From: Candidatus Saccharimonadota bacterium
Lineage (GTDB): Bacteria > Patescibacteriota > Gracilibacteria > BD1-5 > UBA6164
NCBI GenBank assembly: GCA_965227835.1
Contig: OZ245768.1
Location: 390,001 to 422,000, forward strand
Length of the DNA stretch: 32,000 nt
Direction: 5' to 3'
A program made the translations under genes and the position numbers. Below, piece after piece: positions 2,760-23,371 of this stretch (positions are counted from its first letter, which is position 1; each line of letters begins with the position of its first letter). The notes beneath the pieces are model-generated. The model made no database searches and was not told the origin of the DNA. It worked only from the letters and a program-made list of their open reading frames with translations.

Positions 2760-3998
2760 TTAAAACTCTTGGATATTATTTAAAAATTCCAAGAAATTTA
2801 CAATTTTTAATCATTTTACTTCAAAATAGGTTTCAGTTTTATAATATACAAGATATTTATGAGAAAAATTACAAGCAAGCAATCACTTAGTTTCTCTATC
2901 TAAATTTTCTATATTTAAATCATAACAAACTTGCACTCAAATATTTTTATCAAGAACAATAAAATCAATTTCGTAATCTTTGTTTTTCATATAAGACACA
3001 TCATCAAATTTCTTATTAAGTTCATTCCATACTGCATTTTCAAATCTTTGTCATAAATTTTCCAAAAGAAGTATGTTATTGTATCATAAGTCATAAAAAA
3101 AGAATTTCTTTGATCATTTTTTATATTTATCTAAAAACTCTTTTATAAAAAATATTTCTTTCAGGTATTCTATGTAATTATAAATGGTTTGTTTTCAGAT
3201 TTTAAGATTTTGTGATTTCAACTCATTAAATATTTTGTTTATATTAAATTCTTTTGTAATACCAAGTAATAGTTTCTTTATAAGGTACTTTATTGCATAT
3301 TCATTCTCTATTGAATATTTTTCCAATAAATCTTTATACAATAATAAATTAAAGTATCATTTAATTAATTCATATTTAGTTTCGTTATTTTTAGATAATA
3401 CTATCTCTGGATAAGATCAAAAATTTAGAAATTCACTTATAGTATTGCTTAATAAAGCTAATTGTTTTTCAGTGTATGTGTTATCTATTTTTATGTCTCT
3501 AAAGTACAAAAATTCCATAAATTTTAGTGTATGTACTCTTATGTCTATGGTTCTTCATCTAAATACTGTTGATATTTCACTTGATAATAATTTTGAATTT
3601 GAGCCACTTAGAAATAATTTATATCACTCATTGAATAAATATATTACTATTTTTTTAAAATTTATTAGTTCTTGTATTTCATCAAAAACAAAGAAGGGTT
3701 TTTTGTTTGGGTATAGTTCAAAGAAATTTTCAAGCAATTTTTCTACAGAAAAATCATCATATAGGAATGCTGTAAAATCTATAAAAACTATTTGTTTTTT
3801 ATCTATTTTTTTTTCTTTTATTAGCTTTTTTAATGTGAAGAACATAAAATATGTTTTACCTGCTCTCCTTGGTCATACAAATGTGATTATCTTATTGAGT
3901 TTTAAATATTCATAGTTAAATCTTATTTGTCTTTTCAAAGGATTAATTTCAGAAATTTTCTCTTGTCATCTGAGTATGAGTCTTTTATATTTATCCAT
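2760..3998 (-). CDS. AAA+ ATPase, COG1373 type (AAA_14 + DUF4143-like)
   Basis: 413 codons checked triplet by triplet, from ATG at 3998 to TAA at 2760-2762. The P-loop VGPRRAGKT is at 3852-3875, with its first Gly encoded by TGA. Walker B-like FFVFDEIQ is present. The architecture and motifs are typical of the uncharacterised COG1373 ATPases. Confidence 0.85.
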
Positions 3999-4015
3999 AT
4001 AAGACGGTTTTACAT

Positions 4016-4046
4016 AATAATAGTCTTATTATATAAGACTATTATT
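4016..4046. promoter_or_regulatory. perfect 14-bp inverted repeat between the lysS stop and the ATPase start
   Basis: aataatagtcttat-tat-ataagactattatt, 18 nt upstream of the ATPase ATG (3998) and about 80 nt downstream of the lysS stop. No U-run follows it on the minus strand, so it could be an operator or RNA hairpin rather than a classical terminator. Confidence 0.3.
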
Positions 4047-4124
4047 AAAATCAAGTAAAATTATGTATAAAATATTTTTAATTATTAAAATACATAATTT
4101 GAATATAAATCATTTTTAATTTTA

Positions 4125-5777
4125 TTAGCTTTCTTCCTTATTACTTTTCATAATAGGGAAAAGTATTACATCTCTAAGATTTTCTTGCCCAGTTAGCAAA
4201 GAAACTATTCTATCTATACCCATACCCCAACCTGATTGACAAGGCATACCATATTCCATTGCTAGAACAAAATCATCATCTCATGAAGTTGCTTCTTCGT
4301 CTCATCTTTCTATTGCTTCAGACTGTTCGCTAAATTTTTCTTTTTGAATTTTTGGGTCGACTAATTCTGAGTAAGCTTTTAATACCTCCCATCAATTTAA
4401 TACAAGCTGAAACTGCTCTACTATATTTTCATTATCATCTGATTGTCTTGCTAAGGGTTGCATTGTTACAGGGTAATTATAAACAAAAGCTGGACCTACT
4501 ATATTTGGTCTTAAAACCTTTTTATATAAATAATCTATCATTGTAGAAAGTCCTTGTTTATCTATTCACTCCCAAGTAAATCAAGCTTTTTTTATATCAC
4601 TTCTTAATTTCTTTTCATCTTCTATACCATATTTAGAAATATCAATACCTGATTTATCTTTTACCCCTTCTATATAATCTATTCTATCAAAAGGAGTCTT
4701 AAAATTAACTAATTTTTCCTCTCAATTTTTATCTTTTATTTTCAATTCTCTTTTTATATTCATTTTATCAAATAGATAATCAAACATTTTTTCTGTAAAC
4801 TTCATATTATCTTCAAAATTCCACCAAGCAGCATAATGTTCAACCACACTAAACTCTTGAACATGAGAAGGATCAGATCATTCATTTCTAAAATTTTTTC
4901 ATATTTCAAAAACTCTTTCAAACCTTCAAACAGTTGCCTTTTTTAGGGCTATCTCTGGAGCTATACGAAGAAAAAAATCTTCATCAAAATCGTTGTGATG
5001 TGTTACAAAAGGCTGAGCCGCAGCTCAGCTTGCAGCATTTCCCAAGATAGGGGTTTCTATTTCTACAAAACTATTTTCCCAGTAAAATTCTCTTATTGTT
5101 TTTATAAATTTACTTCTAAACATAAATATATCAAAAGAATCTTTATTTGTTATCAAATCAAGATATCTTTGTCTATATATTATTTCTCTATCTTGAAGTC
5201 AATGAAATTTTTCAGGTAAAGGTCTTATTGCTTTTGATAATATTTGAAATTCTTTTACAAATACTGTCAGTTCTCCGTGATTTGTTAAAAATAAATCTCA
5301 TATAATACCAATATAGTCTCATATTTGGCAAAATTTCTCAGCTATTTTAAATGCAGATTTTGTTTCTCATCATATTTCTATTTCAGATACTAAATTTCAT
5401 TTTTTTTCTTCCTTTTTTATTTCATCGTAATTATTTGAGTTTTCTAATCTATTCTCATATTTTGAATTTCAAGTGTTAAATACAATTTTATCTTTAGCAA
5501 AACAAATTTGTATTTCTCAGCTTTGGTCTCTTATTTTTCAAAATAAAAGTTTTCACATCCCTCTGCTTGATATAATTCTTCCAGCTAATTTATATTCACC
5601 TTTTGCTCAGTTTTCCATTAATTCTTCTGCTTTTTTTTTCTTTTGTTCTAAACTACTTGTAACTATATATTCTATGTCTTGCTTTCATGAAAACTTGTTT
5701 GCATAGCAAATAATTCAAGCCTCTTTCATTAATTTTATTTTATTTTGTCTTTCTAAGCTTTCTTTTGAGTATTGCAT
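4125..5777 (-). CDS. lysS: lysine--tRNA ligase (class II)
   Basis: 551 codons checked triplet by triplet. Conserved motifs: [51 protein letters not shown], and C-terminal [40 protein letters not shown]. Several conserved Gly are TGA. TAA at 4125-4127. The only in-frame ATG before the upstream stop is 5775-5777. Confidence 0.95.
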
Positions 5778-5909
5778 TGATTTATATTTATTTGATGTAA
5801 AAAATAATGTTTTTTCATTTTATTTTTTTTTTTATATTTTTCTAATTTTTTAAATACTTTTTTATTTTATTTGGTATTAAGGTATTCTTAGCTATCTTCT
5901 TAAAAAAAG

Positions 5910-5938
5910 TTGATTTTCTATACTTTTTAGGATATAAT
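5910..5938 (+). promoter_or_regulatory. sigma70-like promoter (TTGATT-17-TATAAT) for the downstream ATPase gene
   Basis: ttgatt at 5910-5915, a 17-nt spacer, and tataat at 5933-5938. A second identical -10 at 5965-5970 was created by the 25-bp direct repeat. Confidence 0.5.
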
Positions 5939-5978
5939 TACTAAAAAAGCATAACTTTTTAGGATATAATTACTAAAA
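5922..5978. repeat. 25-bp direct repeat x2 (actttttaggatataattactaaaa), 32-bp period
   Basis: Identical copies at 5922-5946 and 5954-5978, immediately upstream of the ATG at 5982. The repeat duplicates the -10 box. Confidence 0.85.
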
Positions 5979-5981
5979 TAT

Positions 5982-7148
5982 ATGAGATATTTAGAAAAAT
6001 ATATACTGCAAGATTTACAAGATAAAATGGTTTTCATATGATGACCAAGGCAGGTATGAAAAACTACAATTTCCATTAATATAGCAGATAATAATTTTTC
6101 CAATTATACATATTTAAATTGGGATAAAAAAGAACATAGAAAAAAAATACTTGATTCAACATATGATTTTTGAAGTAAAATAATCATTTTCGATGAAATA
6201 CATAAATATAAGTCTTGGAAAAGACTTTTGAAATGAGAATTTGATGTAAACAGACAAAAATATAAATTTCTTGTAACTGGTAGTGCTAGATTAGATATTT
6301 ATCAAAAATGATGAGATAGTATGCTTTGAAGATATTATTATTATAGGCTTCATCCATTTAGCTTAGCTGAAATACTATCTATAGAGAATGATTTTTCAAA
6401 ATGAATAAAAATACATTTTAAAAATATATTTCCAAAAGATAAATTATTAGAATTAGTTGAATTTTGAGGTTTCCCTGAAGTCTTTACAAAGAAAAACTTA
6501 AGGATTCTTAATAGATGGAAAAAAGACAGGCTTAAAAGAATAGTTTATGAAGATATAAGAGATTTAAATAATATAAAAGATTTATGACTTTTAGAGCTTC
6601 TTGCTTCTATACTAAATACAAAAGTTTGAAGTCCTTTTTCAATAAATTCTCTAGTTGAAGATTTACAAGTTACAAATAAAACTATCACAAATTGGATTGA
6701 TATATTTGAGAAGGTTTATTTGGTTTATAGGATATATCCATTTTATAAATCAAATTTAAAATCACTCAAAAAAGAGCCAAAACTATATTTTTGGGACTAT
6801 ACAGGTTTAAATAATATATGAATAAGAAATGAAAATCTTGTTGCAAATCATTTATTAAAATGGGTTCATTTTTTGACTGATGTATACTGATATGATGTAA
6901 AACTACAATATTTAAGAGATAAACAACAAAGAGAGGTTGATTTTGTTGTAAATATAGACTGAAAAATAAAGTATCTTATAGAAGTAAAAACAAGTGATAT
7001 AAATGTATCTAAGCATCTTTTGTATTACAAAGAAAAACTTGAAGTGAAGGATTGTTTTCAGGTTGTATTTTTAGATAAAGAAATTGATTTTGAAAAACAC
7101 TGAGTAAGAGTTATTTCAGCATCTAAATTTTTAACAGCATTTGTATAA
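5982..7148 (+). CDS. AAA+ ATPase, COG1373 type (AAA_14 + DUF4143-like), second paralog
   Basis: 389 codons translated triplet by triplet. The P-loop FIGGPRQVGKTT at 6039-6068 has three of its Gly encoded by TGA. Other motifs: IIIFDEIHKY Walker B, and LVTGSARLDIYQKGGDSMLGRYYYYRLHPFSL, which is typical of this family. TAA at 7146-7148. Confidence 0.85.
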
Positions 7149-7171
7149 ATAACTCTCTGCAAAATTATTAT

Positions 7172-7193
7172 AGTAAACTAACTCGTGAGTTAG
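7172..7193. repeat. hairpin repeat agtaaactaact-N4-agttag, copy 1
   Basis: agtaaactaactcgtgagttag. It shares the 12-nt arm and partial return arm with the perfect hairpin at 7317-7344. Confidence 0.5.
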
Positions 7194-7238
7194 AATATTT
7201 TAAAATACAATTTTTACTGAAAAGACAATTTTTATTTT

Positions 7239-7267
7239 TTTGTCAACAGAGGACTTTAGCCCTTTGC
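7239..7267. repeat. single inverted, diverged copy of the 36-bp hairpin repeat family seen at 14191-14298
   Basis: tttgtcaacagaggactttagccctttg compared with the reverse complement of the 14.2-kb unit, ttttcaacagaaggctttagcctttt. Roughly 80 percent identity by eye. Confidence 0.45.
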
Positions 7268-7316
7268 TATTGTAAGAAATTTCTATTTTTGAAAAGAGAC
7301 TATCTAATTTATCAAC

Positions 7317-7382
7317 AGTAAACTAACTTACAAGTTAGTTTACTATAAAAAGAAGCTTAAAAAATGGCTTCTTTGTTTTTTT
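7317..7382. terminator. 13-bp perfect hairpin followed by a bidirectional intrinsic terminator
   Basis: agtaaactaactt-ac-aagttagtttact at 7317-7344. It is followed by aaagaagc-ttaaaaaatg-gcttcttt plus gttttttt at 7349-7382. On the minus strand the same stem is followed by a T-rich run, so it can also terminate the gene ending at 7434. Confidence 0.6.
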
Positions 7383-7433
7383 ATAAATTATTCAAATTTA
7401 GAAATTGGTAATGAAATTATCTTTAAAAAACCC

Positions 7434-8630
7434 CTAAAAAATAACTTCTCCATCTTCTTCTCCTGAAGCCAACTCTAGTTTTTCTGCTCCAGGCAAAGCT
7501 TTTCACATAAGTGATTCTAAATCTCAATACATATGAGTAACAGCAAAACTAGCTCTTTCTAGATCTCTTTCTCTTTTTTTCCAATTTTTTTCCATGGCTC
7601 TTCTTTCAGCATCAATTCAAGCTTTTAAATTAGAAAATACATCAACTATCATTGATATTTTAGAAGAAAATTCTTCACTTGTTAAATACTTATAAAGCAT
7701 TTCCATTTTTAAATCTTTTCATTCAACAGATTTTTCTATTTTTGAAACAGAAAGTAGTTTGTCCCTTAGTATGGAAGATACAGCAATTACAAATTCTGGT
7801 GAGCAAACCATTACATCATCCAATAAACCAAAATTTTTAATATCTTTTGGCATTACATAAGAAACTAAAATAGCTATATCTCAGTTTACTTTTAGCTTAT
7901 CCTCTTTTAACTTCATAATCCAAGAATCTGACCAAGCTTTGGTATTTTTTGATTCCCAGACTATAGTTCAAGAATCTTGTCAAAACTTATCTCTAACTTT
8001 TTGTATAATATCTGCTCATTTTACTCAGGTTGGTACATCTTCTATTAAATCAAAAGGGAAGTTTAGTTTTAGGGAAGTTTTTAAATCTTCTTCTGATATA
8101 TCACCTTGTATTTGTTGTGATCATTGTTCAGATTTTCTCTTTAAATCATCAATTGTTTTTTTCATTTGTTCTTGTTGCTTTTGGTACTCCAACTCTTTTT
8201 TTCTATTTTCTTCTTGTATATTTTTTAGTCTTTCTTCTAATTGTTTATCATTTTTTTCATTTAGCTCTTTTGTTATTTGATCCTGCATTTGTCTTTTTTG
8301 TTCATCAAGCTTTCTTGTCATTTCTAGTTCTCTATCTTTTTCCTTTTGTTCTAATTCTCTTTGTTTTTTTCTCATTTCTAATTCTTGTTTTTGTAAATTT
8401 TCTATTTGTTTCTGTTCTTCTGCTAGTCTATTTTTCAAATCCTGCATTTCTATAGAATCTTTTTTAGCTTGTTTTAAAGCTTCAGATTTAGCAAAATCTA
8501 TAGCCTTTTTCCTCATTTCTTCTCTTTCTTTTTCAAATTCTTCTTCAAGTTTTTTTCTGTATTTATCTTGAGATAGTTTATCTAAATCTATTATTGTTTT
8601 ACACGAAGGGCATACTATACTTTGTTCCAT
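7434..8630 (-). CDS. DUF2130-like protein: Zn-ribbon, long E/K/Q coiled coil, PD-(D/E)xK-like C-terminal domain
   Basis: ORF-track fragment 8121..8630 reads through TGA into 399 codons, checked. N-terminal CPSCKT, then about 150 aa of coiled coil. The next stretch is GSQQIQGDISEEDLKTSLKLNFPFDLIEDVPTGVKGADIIQKVRDKFGQDSGTIVWESKNTKAWSDSW, which matches my memory of the DUF2130 consensus (GAD...WESK, an E-x-K nuclease-like motif). TAG at 7434-7436. Confidence 0.75.
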
Positions 8631-8641
8631 TATTGTTATTT

Positions 8642-9760
8642 TTAATATTCTAAATTAGGATAGTTCATATTTACTTCTTGGAAATGTATTCTTTGTCTTT
8701 CTCTTACTGTTTTTATCATTTCATTGCTGGGGTTCATTTCTTTAAATAAAATGTCCATTTCACTTACTACATAATCTATTTCTTCATTTATTTCTTTACC
8801 TAAATCTGTGAAAAGAGCATACTTTTTTATTACTTTTTGTAGGAATTTTGTCTTTATGTAAAAAAGAATTATTTTTTCAAACCATCATTTATCATCTCAA
8901 AGAGCTCAAGAAAGGTATGCTTTCATTATTATATACATAGTAGGGGCAAAGGCATGGTATCATAGAAACACTCAGTGTATATGTCTAGCATCTGGTCTTA
9001 TGGCTGAATAATATTTTTCTTCTTTTGAGTTTAGGATTACTGGATCAAACTGCATAAGTAAATTTAGTTTATTATGAGACGATTCGTGTATTACGGCTTC
9101 CAAATTGTTTATTTCGGGAGTATTTGAATCTATAGTATATCATAGATAAAGATGTCCTACACATTCTTTATAACTAGCTGAATTGTGAATAGATTTTGCT
9201 GTACCCAAGGGTATTATTTTTGTTATAATTTGATTTAGTTCATCATATATTCACCTATCTACTTTTTTTAGAAGTTCAAAAGTTTTTTTATAAACTTCTA
9301 GCCACTCTTGTTTACTTTTTTCTCACCAATTTCAAGCTACAGCTCAAAGTTGTTTGTGTTCTGGATGGGCATCTCTTCAATTATAGGGGTTATTGTCTGT
9401 ATCTGTGAGTCTGATTTGAGTTCAATAAATTTTATCTCATTTGTTTTGTGATAATTTATCTGAAGATATTCATTCCTCTAAAAATATTTCTATTTCTTCC
9501 TTTAATTTAATGATTTCTATCTCTGGGGATGTATTTTCATTTAGACTTATTACTATTCAATTTATCAAAGAGGATATATCTGCATTTAGTATAAAATTTT
9601 TACAATCTTTTTTTAAAAGCTTTTCTATTTCTTCTTTTAATATTCATTTTTCTTGTAAATTTTTTAAATCATCTAATAGTTTTTGATAATATTTTTGAAA
9701 ATAATTTTTTAATAGGGGAGAGTCCTTGGTTCATAAAACATAGTATTTTAATTCTTTCAT
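8642..9760 (-). CDS. HEXXH-motif domain protein (peptide-modification-associated family candidate)
   Basis: 373 codons checked, from ATG at 9758-9760 to TAA at 8642-8644, 11 nt upstream of the DUF2130-like gene start. HESSH is at 9074-9088 in the context NNLEAVIHESSHNKLNLL, followed by RPDARHIHGVFLGYHAF. From memory this resembles the HEXXH-motif domain family found next to radical SAM/SPASM maturases. It needs an HMM search. Confidence 0.7.
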
Positions 9761-9942
9761 ATCCGTTTAAATTATCTTTTAAGTTATATAATTATTATCT
9801 CTTGAAATTATATTATTTTAGCTTTTAAATGCAATAAATTTGAAGAAAAATTTGATATTTTACTTTATTTAAATAGTATCTAGGATACAAGTTTTACTTG
9901 TTTTTTGAATAATGTTATCTTTTTTGTTTTAGGAGGTAAAAA

Positions 9943-10686
9943 ATGGATACAAGTTTTCATAATATAAAGGCTGATAGTTATGAGGTAACTAGGGTTAATA
10001 AACTGGTGAAAAACACCTATATTACCATCGGTATAGGGATTATGCTTAGTGCTATATCCTCTTATTTTACTTTGAATGTTAATATAAGTTTGTTTCCACT
10101 TATATTGATGCTTGCCTCTATGTTTGGTCTAATTTTTGCAATTAGTCATTTCAAAAATAGTGCTATTGGTTTGTTCCTCTTTTTTGCTTTTACAGCACTT
10201 ATGGGAGCTTTCGTAGGACCGGCTATAGGTCTTTACCTAGATTTGCCTAACGGGAAAAACATTGTTACTATGGCATTTACTATGACAACTTTTGTATTTA
10301 TAAGTTTGTCTTGTTATGTTCATATTAGCAAAAAAGAATTCAGCTTTATCGGAGGTTTTCTTTTTACTGGATTGATATTGCTAATTGTTGCAATGATACT
10401 CAATATTTTTTTCTATCATCCTGTCTTCCATTTGGTGATAAGTTGTGTGGCTGTTCTTGTATTTTCTGGTTTTATTTTATATGATACTTCTAGAATGGTA
10501 CATGAACATAATGGTAACTATATTGAGTTAGCATTGTCGCAATTCTTAAATATTTTTAATCTATTCATACATTTATTATCCATTCTTGGGATACTTTCTG
10601 ATGATTGATTAAGAAAAATAAAAGGAGTTTACCTAAAACACCCTGCTTTGAAAAAAGCAGGGTGGTTTTTTAAAATTCCATATTAA
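9943..10686 (+). CDS. Bax inhibitor-1/YccA family membrane protein (ancestral stop TGA at 10606-10608; reads on to TAA 10684-10686 under table 25)
   Basis: Strong SD aggaggt 7 nt upstream of the ATG. Seven-TM-like profile with the C-terminal LYDTSRM...LFIHLLSILGI signature of the BI-1/YccA family. All 14 Gly are GGN, with no internal TGA. GC is visibly higher than in the flanks. The TGA after ...SDD is followed by an intrinsic terminator that lies inside the table-25 extension. Confidence 0.85.
10639..10671 (+). terminator. intrinsic terminator of the BI-1 gene
   Basis: caccctgct-ttgaaaaa-agcagggtg followed by gtttttt. Confidence 0.8.
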
Positions 10687-13324: not shown

Positions 13325-13720
13325 CTACATATCTAAAAGCCTATAGTCTTTATCTATCTCCAAAAAATCATTTTTTATACTTAATTTAAAATTAATTGAA
13401 TCACTTGTTTTTCATGACAAAATATATTCTATTTCATCAATTATAATTCAAGTGCTTGTATTTGCTGTAGAACAATTATCTAAGTTTAGGTAAAAATTAT
13501 TTAAATTGGAGTTGGAGGCTCAGCTTCAAAATATATTTTCAATACATTCTCCAAAACTGAAAAAAAGATAATTTGTATTTTTATAAATATTTGAATTGTT
13601 TATGCTTTTTGTATTTTCTCAAATCAATTTAAAAACTCAAAAAACAGCCATACTTAACAACACAGAAGCCACTACAACTTCTATTAGTGAAAAAGCTTTT
13701 TTCTTTTTTTTGATTAACAT
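13325..13720 (-). CDS. type IV pilin-like / pseudopilin protein (prepilin-type N-terminal motif)
   Basis: 132 codons checked. The N-terminus MLIKKKKKAFSLIEVVVASVLLSMAVFG carries the [KR][GA]F[ST]LIE cleavage/methylation-type motif (13679-13699) followed by a hydrophobic helix. TAG at 13325-13327. Confidence 0.75.
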
Positions 13721-16492: not shown

Positions 16493-17527
16493 ATGTTAAA
16501 AGAAATTTTACAGATGTCTATAGACTTAAAAGCTTCAGATATAATACTTTCTTCATGATCAAAAGCTAGTTTAAAAATATGATGAGAAGTTAAATTTATA
16601 GAAGATAAAGAAGTTATTTCAAAGCAGTATATGCAAAATATAGTTTTTTCAACTATGAGTGAAAACCAGAAAAACAGATTTATAGCAGAAAAAGAGCTTG
16701 ATTATGGTATATGATTTGGTAAACATAGATTTAGAGTAAACGCATTTGTTACTAGAAAAGGTATGGGAATAGTATGCAGACCTATTCCAACAGAGGTTCC
16801 TGAATTTGATAATTTATGATTACCTCCAATAGTAAAAACTCTAGCTCACAGGAGGAATTGATTAGTTTTAATAACATGACCTGTATGATCTTGAAAATCT
16901 ACATCTATGATTTCATTGGTAAATGAGATAAATAATACAGAAAATAAACATATAATAACCGTAGAAGATCCAATAGAATTTATATTTGAAAATAACAAAA
17001 GCTTGATAGAACAAAGAGAAGTTGGTACTTCAACTCTTAGTTTTGATAATTGATTGAAATATGCTCTTAGACAAGCTCCTGATGTTATAATGCTTGGGGA
17101 AATGAGAGATATAGAGACTTTCAGATTAGCTTTGAGAGCAGCTGAAACAGGAAATTTAGTATTTGCCACTCTACATACTTCTTGAGTTGCTAGAACTATT
17201 TCTAGAGTAATAGATATGTTTCCAGCTTGAGAGAAAGATCAAATAAGGGGGCAATTATCCGAATCACTTATATGAGTTATATGGCAAAAATTATTAAAAT
17301 CAAAAGATGAAAAGGGGAGAGTACTTGCTACAGAAGTTATGATAAACAACACATCTATTTCAAACATTATAAGGAAGTGAGATACTCATCAGATAAACTC
17401 TGTTATAGAAACTTCTTTGACAGAGGGTATGATTAATATGAAAAGGACTTTAGAAAAACTTTATGAGCATTGAAAAATAAGTGAAGATTTGTACAAGGAA
17501 GAAATTAAAATGCTTTGAACAGATTAA
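16493..17527 (+). CDS. pilT: type IV pilus retraction ATPase PilT
   Basis: 345 codons checked. Walker A GPVGSGKS at 16877-16900 is encoded tga-cct-gta-tga-tct-tga-aaa-tct. Other motifs: [40 protein letters not shown] (His box) and [11 protein letters not shown] at 17525-17527. Confidence 0.9.
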
Positions 17528-22910: not shown

Positions 22911-22945
22911 GAAATTACTTTTGTTAAACTAAAGAGGAGGGAGTT

Positions 22946-23371
22946 ATGTATTTTGCAAAAGTTTTTTTTCTTATTGCTATATTGCTACAATTATCATCCT
23001 GTATTTCTACTAATACATATAACAAATATAAAGGATGTGAAATTGTTAATGGTACTTTTATTGGTTTAAAAACTCCTGGAAAAATAGCATGCTTTGATAA
23101 AATACAGGGTGATGTTTTAAGGGTATATTATGAATCATATAGACATAGTAAATCTAGAACACTTATAAAATTTTCACTATATGATAAACTATCCAATATA
23201 TCAAAAAGTGAAAATCCTATTTCTAAATATACCATATCATCTAAAAAAAATCCTATTTATTTACTTAATGTATGCTATAATGGTTATCATCATAGACTTT
23301 ATGCTAAAGCTAATTATAAGGAATTGGAGTTTGAATTTCGTAAGTTAAAAAGTAGATTAAAAAGATGTTAA
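22946..23371 (+). CDS. putative lipoprotein (141 aa)
   Basis: Intact in the ORF track. Strong SD agaggaggg. Signal peptide with lipobox LQLSSC. All six Gly are GGN, with no TGA. Ends in TAA plus a strong terminator. Confidence 0.75.
   Translation: MYFAKVFFLIAILLQLSSCISTNTYNKYKGCEIVNGTFIGLKTPGKIACFDKIQGDVLRVYYESYRHSKSRTLIKFSLYDKLSNISKSENPISKYTISSKKNPIYLLNVCYNGYHHRLYAKANYKELEFEFRKLKSRLKRC

Follow-up and report, generated by a model that had tools for sequence, protein, structure and literature searches.

A stand-alone HExxH-type oxygenase gene as the probable displaced end module of an expanded HXS-type island in a code-25 Gracilibacteria genome

The window analysed here, a 32,000-nt stretch of contig OZ245768.1, carries at 8642–9760 on its minus strand a gene whose sequence and modelled fold point to an Fe(II)/alpha-ketoglutarate-dependent HExxH oxygenase, a predicted hydroxylase. 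This gene is probably the displaced end module of an expanded maturation island of the HXS (His-Xaa-Ser) type, its product hydroxylating an HxsA-like protein, while in the same reading the DUF2130 gene next to it is a bystander which flanks the island in this genus and forms no functional pair with it. Family membership, the fold of the HExxH protein, gene order and co-occurrence were observed directly.

The locus and its two proteins

Both genes are fragmented when the window is translated with table 11 and intact only under table 25 (TGA = Gly), whereby the HExxH gene gives a stand-alone protein of 372 aa with 17 in-frame TGA codons and the DUF2130 gene (7434–8630, minus strand) one of 398 aa with 10. 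The reading of TGA as glycine is supported directly, since two TGA-coded residues in the DUF2130 protein, G202 and G205, align to invariant glycine columns among 26 homologues. Under this code, the open reading frames, the 11-nt spacer (8631–8641, minus strand, read directly) and the motifs quoted in an earlier sequence-only reading of this DNA were all found in place; the HESSH motif (H225, E226, H229) occupies 9074–9088 on the minus strand, corresponding to residues 225–229. The bidirectional terminator described there was recovered in part. A single terminator-like hairpin, the sole site found, lies at 7349–7374 (plus strand) between the DUF2130 gene and a convergent ATPase gene, but its T-run is on the plus strand only (the minus-strand tail has just 4 T in 8), so that it would serve the ATPase gene; moreover, one site against 0.8 ± 0.7 in shuffled sequences is at chance level. 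The promoter scan over 7000–10200 was uninformative (15 sites, 17.6 expected). Beyond the hairpin, Pfam matches identify a block of three genes at 2760–7148: an AAA_14/DUF4143 ATPase (2760–3998, minus strand), a class II aminoacyl-tRNA synthetase (4125–5777, minus strand) and a second AAA_14/DUF4143 ATPase (5982–7148, plus strand). Transposase remnants, like these ATPase genes, occur near the HExxH and DUF2130 genes.

In the HMM search, the HExxH protein matched NCBIfam TIGR04267 (aKG-HExxH peptide beta-hydroxylase) over residues 159–276 with 53.4 bits at a cut-off of 40, which confirmed the family assignment and the accession proposed earlier. Residues H225, E226, H229, R255, P256, D257, R259 and H269 are invariant among 25 homologues, and in the profile alignment the HESSH, R.D.R and HA motifs align to ChlH; the protein's profile also matches ChlH (8s5f) and SjiH (22ob) by sequence. 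The AF2 model (pLDDT 93.2) recovered the same two proteins from the PDB with Foldseek, 8s5f ChlBHExxH at E 3.6e-10 (TM 0.60–0.71) and 22ob SjiH at E 1.4e-8, and the next match had an E value above 1. Identity to the solved aKG-HExxH structures is 11–16%. The PADLOC scan gave no match for this protein, and the phylum-wide sample held no homologue outside the order. Known members of the family hydroxylate His, Asp, Gln, Phe and Pro.

It is extremely unlikely that the protein is instead an HExxH metallopeptidase of the zincin type with a leader-peptidase role. The motif itself would fit such an enzyme, as would the zincin-like fold of the aKG-HExxH family and some hydrolytic activity in its member PflC (PMC12636437). 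Nevertheless, a match to an ordinary metallopeptidase family, named earlier as evidence that would speak against the sequence-only reading, did not turn up in Pfam or NCBIfam; the only structural matches at E < 1 are two aKG-HExxH oxygenases, and the R-P-D-x-R and H269 motifs, common to ChlH, are invariant.

The second protein belongs to DUF2130, as proposed, with a strong match to PF09903 (198.3 bits, cut-off 26.7) covering 252 of the 255 profile positions. It carries CPSC at residues 7–10, GAD at 205–207 and WESK at 225–228, and shares with the family the conserved E...D...ExK core, in which E180, D207, E226 and K228 are invariant across 26 sequences. Its model has a long helix at residues 18–169 followed by a putative PD-(D/E)xK-type core with pLDDT around 90, in agreement with the earlier description of about 150 aa of coiled coil and a nuclease-like core. 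The claimed zinc ribbon stood only as far as the CPxC motif, present in 24 of 29 homologues: it is a single knuckle without a second Cys pair and differs thereby from a full ribbon. Foldseek matches of the core were weak (none at E ≤ 0.001) and nearly all to PD-(D/E)xK nucleases, with the nuclease domains of SPARDA, DdmD, MspJI, McrC, PaqCI and Bax1 at the top. The PDB sequence search returned only coiled-coil matches, and PADLOC only coiled-coil-type matches at E ≥ 0.0036. To our knowledge, the DUF2130 family has no characterised member. It appears (PF09903, COG4487) in the list of PD-(D/E)XK phosphodiesterases of Steczkiewicz et al., 2012 (PMC3424549). The gene is near-core: it occurs as a single copy almost throughout the order, with 22/30 and 28/28 genomes in two families carrying it, and its predicted product is a coiled-coil PD-(D/E)xK nuclease-like protein. 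A role in DNA recombination or repair is likely by analogy because its architecture resembles that of RmuC, in which a coiled coil also precedes a nuclease-like domain, although the protein and RmuC do not match in sequence.

The two genes as neighbours

Among some 30 HExxH-bearing relatives, the order with DUF2130 after HExxH was seen only here and in one genome of the same genus, G642, where the spacer is 24 nt. A tblastn search of 24 HExxH loci with the DUF2130 protein as query gave G642 as the sole match, and gene-order maps of 8 kb on either side of 22 HExxH loci agree that the adjacency is absent outside the genus. In two other genomes (G435 and G417) both genes are on one contig but 80–325 kb apart, and elsewhere they are on separate contigs. 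The HExxH gene is patchy in the order (13/30 and 8/28 genomes of the two families), and DUF2130 had no recurrent neighbour across 30 loci. The sequence-only reading had proposed a two-gene cassette, to be given up if the families did not co-occur beyond this locus, and, bar the one same-genus genome, the comparison across genomes gave exactly this outcome. The two genes are probably co-transcribed here, given the 11-nt spacer, but by position only.

A genus-specific module, for example one in which the hydroxylase modifies or regulates the nuclease in a conflict system, is highly improbable. The pair is on the same strand in both genomes, has stayed together through an inversion (see below) and lies in the vicinity of AAA_14/DUF4143 ATPases and transposase remnants, as such a module might. 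Against it stand the confinement of the adjacency to one genus, the near-universal distribution of DUF2130 independently of HExxH, the PADLOC scans, which found nothing beyond coiled-coil noise, and a far stronger conserved partnership of the HExxH gene elsewhere. The alternative of a conflict or defence function, raised earlier, does not apply to the pair and is right only indirectly, for the HXS-type island to which the HExxH gene would belong (PMC13128918). Recognising the adjacency as positional keeps a spurious "HExxH + DUF2130" system out of the catalogue.

The partners are found on the other side of the three-gene block, which stands between them and the HExxH gene: they are at 413–1357 and 1358–2731 of the window and further upstream, so that the earlier suggestion of a peptide-modification enzyme parted from its radical SAM partner was borne out. 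Comparison of the gene order with that of G642 indicates that a local inversion most likely carried the HExxH gene about 6 kb away. The rearrangement would have comprised an inversion of the block running from HExxH and DUF2130 to the aminoacyl-tRNA synthetase gene and the insertion of the two AAA_14 ATPase genes. At the presumed breakpoints, the search for inverted repeats returned AT-rich noise only, and the second breakpoint found no confirmation in the comparison.

The HXS-type island and its putative product

The HXS families, TIGR03976–03979, are those of Haft and Basu. The island spans about 26 kb (genome positions 366.8–392.7 kb), and its last three genes fall in the window at 1–2731. 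It begins with HxsD (genome 366857–367108; TIGR03976, 58.9 bits, cut-off 50) and the radical SAM/SPASM protein HxsB (368154–369551; TIGR03978, 448.2 bits, cut-off 370), followed by an HxsA-like precursor of 146 aa (372419–372859) and then by nine radical SAM genes with the CxxxCxxC motif, mostly HxsC- or HxsC4-like; U32-like and kinase-like genes are also present. The radical SAM proteins of the island score best to HxsC4 and HxsC, whereby HxsC4 (NF038332) reaches at most 135 bits at a cut-off of 500. One of them, of 422 aa (genome 389051–390319, plus strand; NF038332, 134.8 bits, below the cut-off), has its 3' end at 1–319 of the window. The next, of 314 aa at 413–1357 on the plus strand (PF04055), is the closest HxsC relative in the genome, with 94.6 bits to TIGR03977 under code 25, below the cut-off of 267.9 (75 bits with stops read through). 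The last gene of the island, at 1358–2731 on the minus strand, encodes a polytopic membrane protein with a putative A24 (prepilin-peptidase-type) aspartyl-protease core: an orthologue, not the window protein itself, matches PF01478 with 29.1 bits (cut-off 26.5), and the motifs D24...IPN and GD(93)xKY are kept in 15–17 of 17 sequences.

The precursor opens with a conserved basic leader and ends at its C-terminus in a (His-Gly-Ser)x8 tail. The NCBIfam model HxsA3 matched all four of the precursors compared (best E 7.6e-11, below the 65-bit cut-off) and HxsA4 gave E 1.2e-6, also below its cut-off of 55 bits; no Pfam domain, including the peptidoglycan-binding one, was detected. The search for short precursor genes proposed earlier gave none within the window, the only match there being 22928–23368 at E = 2.6, but an HxsA-like precursor was found 25.8 kb upstream of the HExxH gene as the sole match of its profile in the genome. 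It surfaced through a cluster of 110–166 aa proteins and an HMM search. When 393 small ORFs of 22 HExxH loci and the window were clustered, conserved short ORFs were shared by one pair of close relatives at most.

The order 422-aa radical SAM, 314-aa radical SAM, A24-like gene and HExxH is common to most relatives. Orthologues of the 314-aa protein (62–76% identity) occur in 26 of the 101 genomes of the order, beside the A24-like and HExxH genes, and the A24-like gene, the divergent neighbour of HExxH in relatives, likewise in 26/101. The HxsA-like profile has a match in 39/101 genomes, among them all 30 HExxH-positive genomes tested, and where the two genes share a contig, 1–30 kb separate precursor and HExxH in 16 of 17 cases. 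In G417, the HExxH gene lies 90 kb off the island. The stand-alone oxygenase gene is a regular end module of expanded HXS-type islands in Gracilibacteria, even where rearrangement masks the link. It is an accessory to the island, since it is absent from seven precursor-bearing genomes.

This absence would also suit another reading, in which HExxH is tied to the island by position only and acts on a different substrate, such as a small molecule or the N/S/T/G-rich, secreted surface protein of cluster 3 (about 900–1150 aa with a signal peptide). In both families of the order, the cluster 3 gene immediately follows HExxH on its downstream side, and no feature discriminated by eye between the precursor tails of HExxH-positive and HExxH-negative genomes. 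We nevertheless consider such a substrate unlikely: in this genome 42 kb lie between cluster 3 and HExxH, the precursor accompanies HExxH in every genome tested, and the characterised aKG-HExxH enzymes each act on a peptide of their own gene cluster (PMC12636437, PMC13060819).

For the preferred HxsA-like substrate, we infer the chemistry, the leader cleavage and the antiphage role as follows. The radical SAM enzymes would first modify the precursor's His/Gly/Ser-rich core, after which the HExxH enzyme would hydroxylate side chains of the modified precursor, and the A24-like peptidase may cut off the leader at K-G|F-L-T-D-E, a conserved site that resembles a class III signal (F at +1, E at +5). 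The mature product would be exported by analogy with HxsA of E. coli, which blocks the entry of phage DNA (PMC13128918). A fuller version, in which HExxH, a dedicated A24 protease and about 10 radical SAM enzymes mature the His-Gly-Ser-repeat protein, the A24-like enzyme cuts the leader and the hydroxylated and otherwise heavily modified product at the surface keeps phage DNA out as an HXS-type barrier in a cell without a periplasm, is tentative and rather doubtful as a whole. If the assignment holds, the HXS system, so far one of four genes in Pseudomonadota, gains a tailoring step that depends on oxygen and perhaps a dedicated leader peptidase of the A24 type, and His-Gly-Ser repeats become a new candidate type of substrate for the HExxH enzyme family.

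Comparison with known systems

With the aKG-HExxH family (TIGR04267/IPR026337: the ChlH domain of ChlBH 8s5f, SjiH 22ob, BpmH/BipH, PflC/PosC and PesO), the protein shares an HMM score above the cut-off, the invariant HExxH and downstream R.D.R/H motifs, the fold (TM 0.6–0.7) and adjoining radical SAM genes for peptide maturation. It differs in being stand-alone instead of a radical SAM fusion, in its host from a code-25 Gracilibacteria lineage and in its presumed substrate, a protein with His-Gly-Ser repeats that belongs to an HXS-type system; this context is absent from the cited literature.

The HXS system proper is the antiphage system HxsD-HxsB-HxsC-HxsA of E. coli, Klebsiella and Pseudomonas, with 99.7% of known systems in Pseudomonadota; antiphage activity by blocked DNA entry is that of the E. 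coli HXS only (Li et al., 2026; PMC13128918). In a Patescibacteria-type cell, as here, such a role would hold by analogy. The island has in common with the HXS of Pseudomonadota HxsD and HxsB above the curated cut-offs, HxsC-like radical SAM proteins and a precursor ending in His-Xaa-Ser repeats, although its HxsC-like and HxsA-like proteins are well below the curated cut-offs and the peptidoglycan-binding domain that E. coli HxsA carries is absent from the precursor. Instead of four genes, it extends over about 26 kb and adds about nine radical SAM genes, the HExxH oxygenase, the A24-type peptidase and U32-like and kinase-like genes.

Genetic code and gene coordinates

The window has a G+C content of about 25%, and the region falls apart into many short ORFs under translation table 11, while table 25 yields long genes. 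The two genes that the sequence-only reading had proposed as a two-gene cassette both lie on the reverse strand: the HExxH gene (8642-9760) encodes 372 aa with 17 in-frame TGA codons, and the DUF2130 gene (7434-8630) encodes 398 aa with 10. Since G202 and G205 of the DUF2130 protein, both TGA-coded, fall in invariant-Gly columns among 26 homologues, TGA=Gly is supported directly; many of these homologues come from genomes without TGA in the same region.

The observation itself (two genes, their motifs and families) is confirmed. The 11-nt spacer, the HESSH at 9074-9088 and, in the DUF2130 protein, CPSC and GAD...WESK were all reproduced, and the model of that protein shows the helix of about 150 residues. 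The bidirectional terminator described 3' of the gene pair proved to be one hairpin, with a T-run that serves the convergent + strand gene; only one terminator-like site was found, no more than shuffles yield. Between an AAA_14 ATPase gene and the DUF2130 gene lies a pair of 29-nt inverted repeats (7165-7193 and 7323-7351; 90% complementary, 129 nt apart), with arms that are themselves partly palindromic. This could be a small mobile/REP-like element or a pair of hairpins.

Families and proposed pairing of the HExxH and DUF2130 proteins

With 53.4 bits (cut-off 40), the HExxH protein belongs to NCBIfam TIGR04267 ('aKG-HExxH-type peptide beta-hydroxylase'), the family suspected from the sequence; it has no Pfam family. 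Invariant in the 25-sequence alignment were H225, E226, H229, R255, P256, D257, R259 and H269. Its profile matches the HExxH domains of 22nu/22ob and of ChlH (8s5f), and the AF2 model (pLDDT 93.2, pTM 0.91) found no PDB matches other than 8s5f and 22ob; all further entries, metalloproteases among them, had E > 1. Characterised aKG-HExxH members are Fe/aKG oxygenases acting on RiPP precursors, where the hydroxylated residue is His, Asp, Phe, Gln or Pro; one additionally cleaves the backbone (PMC12636437, PMC13060819, PMC12707348).

The second protein was verified as PF09903 DUF2130 (198 bits), listed as a PD-(D/E)XK family (PMC3424549), with E180, D207, E226 and K228 invariant in the alignment. 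The core of its model is confident, and its weak structural matches are nearly all PD-(D/E)xK nuclease domains, none at E <= 0.001; no sequence relatives were found in the PDB, and PADLOC gave nothing beyond matches of coiled-coil type (E >= 0.0036). As for the proposed zinc ribbon, the CPxC is present (residues 7-10, kept in 24/29 homologues, directly N-terminal of the long helix), but no second Cys pair occurs at the N-terminus, leaving a lone knuckle closer in look to a Rad50-type zinc hook than to a ribbon. Such a hook needs two chains.

The window genome, 1.49 Mb on a single contig, has one copy of either gene. Across a class sample of 401 genomes, true HExxH homologues were limited to the window's order, where two families have them (13/30 and 8/28 genomes), with none in a phylum-wide sample; DUF2130 was present in 22/30 and 28/28 genomes of these families, always as one copy, and class-wide in 89/401. 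When 24 HExxH loci were searched by tblastn with the DUF2130 protein, the same-genus genome G642 alone gave a match, in agreement with +/-8 kb gene-order maps of 22 loci. Elsewhere, genes on a shared contig lie far from each other, at 536 and 862 kb in G417 and at 112 and 194 kb in G435; in other genomes they are on separate contigs. Among 30 DUF2130 loci sampled from the class, no neighbour recurs. In the loci compared, the adjacency is thus absent beyond the genus; such a lack of wider co-occurrence is what the sequence-only reading had itself named as evidence against a cassette, and the cassette is not supported.

Radical SAM and peptidase partners and the probable displacement of the HExxH gene

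In relatives, the HExxH gene ends a conserved block of two radical SAM genes (rSAM-422, for 422 aa, and rSAM-314, for 314 aa) and a divergently oriented gene for a polytopic, roughly 450-aa membrane protein; more radical SAMs, glycosyltransferases, a carbamoyltransferase and a TPR protein often come before it; rSAM-314, the membrane protein and HExxH are contiguous in, e.g., G793, G798, G803 and G805. The window holds the 3' end of rSAM-422 (1-319), rSAM-314 (413-1357) and the membrane protein (1358-2731), which supports the suggestion of a peptide-modification module separated from its radical SAM partner. By sequence, this membrane protein belongs with the A24-type aspartyl peptidases: an orthologue passes PF01478, and the catalytic motifs D24...IPN and GD93xKY are both conserved. 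Upstream of the window runs a co-directional array that includes nine CxxxCxxC genes, one U32-like and one kinase-like gene, and remnants of transposases. In NCBIfam its radical SAMs score best to HxsC4 and HxsC, except for a PapB/HxsB-like and a HemN-like enzyme; all scores are far under curated cut-offs. The array is broken directly 5' of rSAM-422 by a fragment of a Mutator-family transposase and by a gene for an rve-type integrase (L081:13214-14704; G000:C1:387214-388704), which points to recent activity of insertion sequences in the island.

The gene order in G642 is rSAM-314 (+), A24-like (-), HExxH (+), DUF2130 (+), a 134-aa gene (+) and a class II aaRS (+), versus rSAM-314 (+), A24-like (-), AAA_14 (-), aaRS (-), AAA_14 (+), DUF2130 (-) and HExxH (-) in the window. 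The A24-like/HExxH junction is common to other genera and thus ancestral, and one HExxH-to-aaRS inversion plus two AAA_14/DUF4143 genes most likely explains the difference. No inverted repeats mark the breakpoints, and the far breakpoint of this putative inversion is unconfirmed. The two AAA_14/DUF4143 (COG1373-type) ATPase paralogues, 2760-3998 (-) and 5982-7148 (+), flank the aaRS gene in inverted orientation and coincide with, or lie close to, the rearrangement that parted HExxH from the island; a third copy lies within the island of G642.

In other genera, HExxH is followed by a large secreted N/S/T/G-rich protein, then rpoD and dnaG. These genes are scattered in the window genome, and so DUF2130 became the flank of HExxH in this genus only. 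The secreted proteins (900-1150 aa, no Pfam domain), whose genes lie 3' of HExxH in the majority of relatives from both families, may be located at the cell surface. In the window genome the gene is outside the window at G000:C1:441850-444822, 42 kb from HExxH; L031:4811-7915 and relatives hold other members.

The HxsA-like precursor and comparison with the HXS system

Small-ORF clustering over 22 HExxH loci and the window gave no shared precursor. An HMM built from a cluster of 110-166-aa proteins at three HExxH loci had one match in this genome (G000:C1:372419-372859; L082:14419-14859; E = 2e-22). In this HxsA-like protein, a conserved basic leader (FPKLKKKLKGFLTDESGKI.KKDALG) is followed by a mildly hydrophobic stretch; the core is rich in His, Gly and Ser and includes a VNGH motif, and the C-terminal tail consists of (His-Gly-Ser)x8. 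All 4/4 cluster members match NCBIfam HxsA3 below the cut-off, the present one also HxsA4, again below it, and it contains no Pfam domain. The genes just 5' of it, HxsD (58.9 bits vs 50) and HxsB (448 bits vs 370), are bona fide by their profile scores; for HxsC, no gene in the genome scores up to the cut-off, and rSAM-314 comes closest. Between HxsB and the precursor lie about nine small co-directional ORFs of 76-147 aa (G000:C1:369642-372402; L082:11642-14402).

The precursor profile matched in 39/101 genomes of the order, including 30/30 HExxH-positive genomes tested (22 plus 8 more), 7 without HExxH and 2 others outside the test. In 17 relatives the precursor and HExxH genes are on the same contig, and in all but one of these the distance is 1-30 kb; in the window genome it is 25.8 kb.

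After the basic leader, HxsA-like precursors carry an invariant F-L-(T/S)-(D/E)-E, usually following Gly. With F at +1 and E at +5, the motif looks like a site for prepilin-type cleavage, so the A24-like enzyme may be the precursor's dedicated leader peptidase and would cut at K-G↓FLTDE; the HExxH enzyme would hydroxylate the HxsA-like protein. A pilin-like protein with the N-terminal methylation motif KKAFSLIE (13325-13720) and a T2SSE/PilB-type ATPase (16493-17527) show that genes of a type IV pilus-like system lie nearby, a relevant background for an A24-type peptidase paralogue.

Work from 2026 showed that in E. coli the HXS system (HxsD-HxsB-HxsC-HxsA) keeps phage DNA from entering the cell; its effector is an HxS-repeat protein matured by radical SAM enzymes and processed N-terminally. 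Known examples are 99.7% in Pseudomonadota, almost all with exactly four genes; the paper makes no mention of HExxH enzymes, peptidases or Gracilibacteria (PMC13128918). By analogy, the island may have an antiphage role. What is added here is the link of a separated HExxH gene to the island, along with rejection of its pairing with DUF2130. Compared with the system of E. coli, the island extends beyond four genes and is an expanded, undescribed HXS variant, of which the HExxH gene is probably the displaced tailoring oxygenase.
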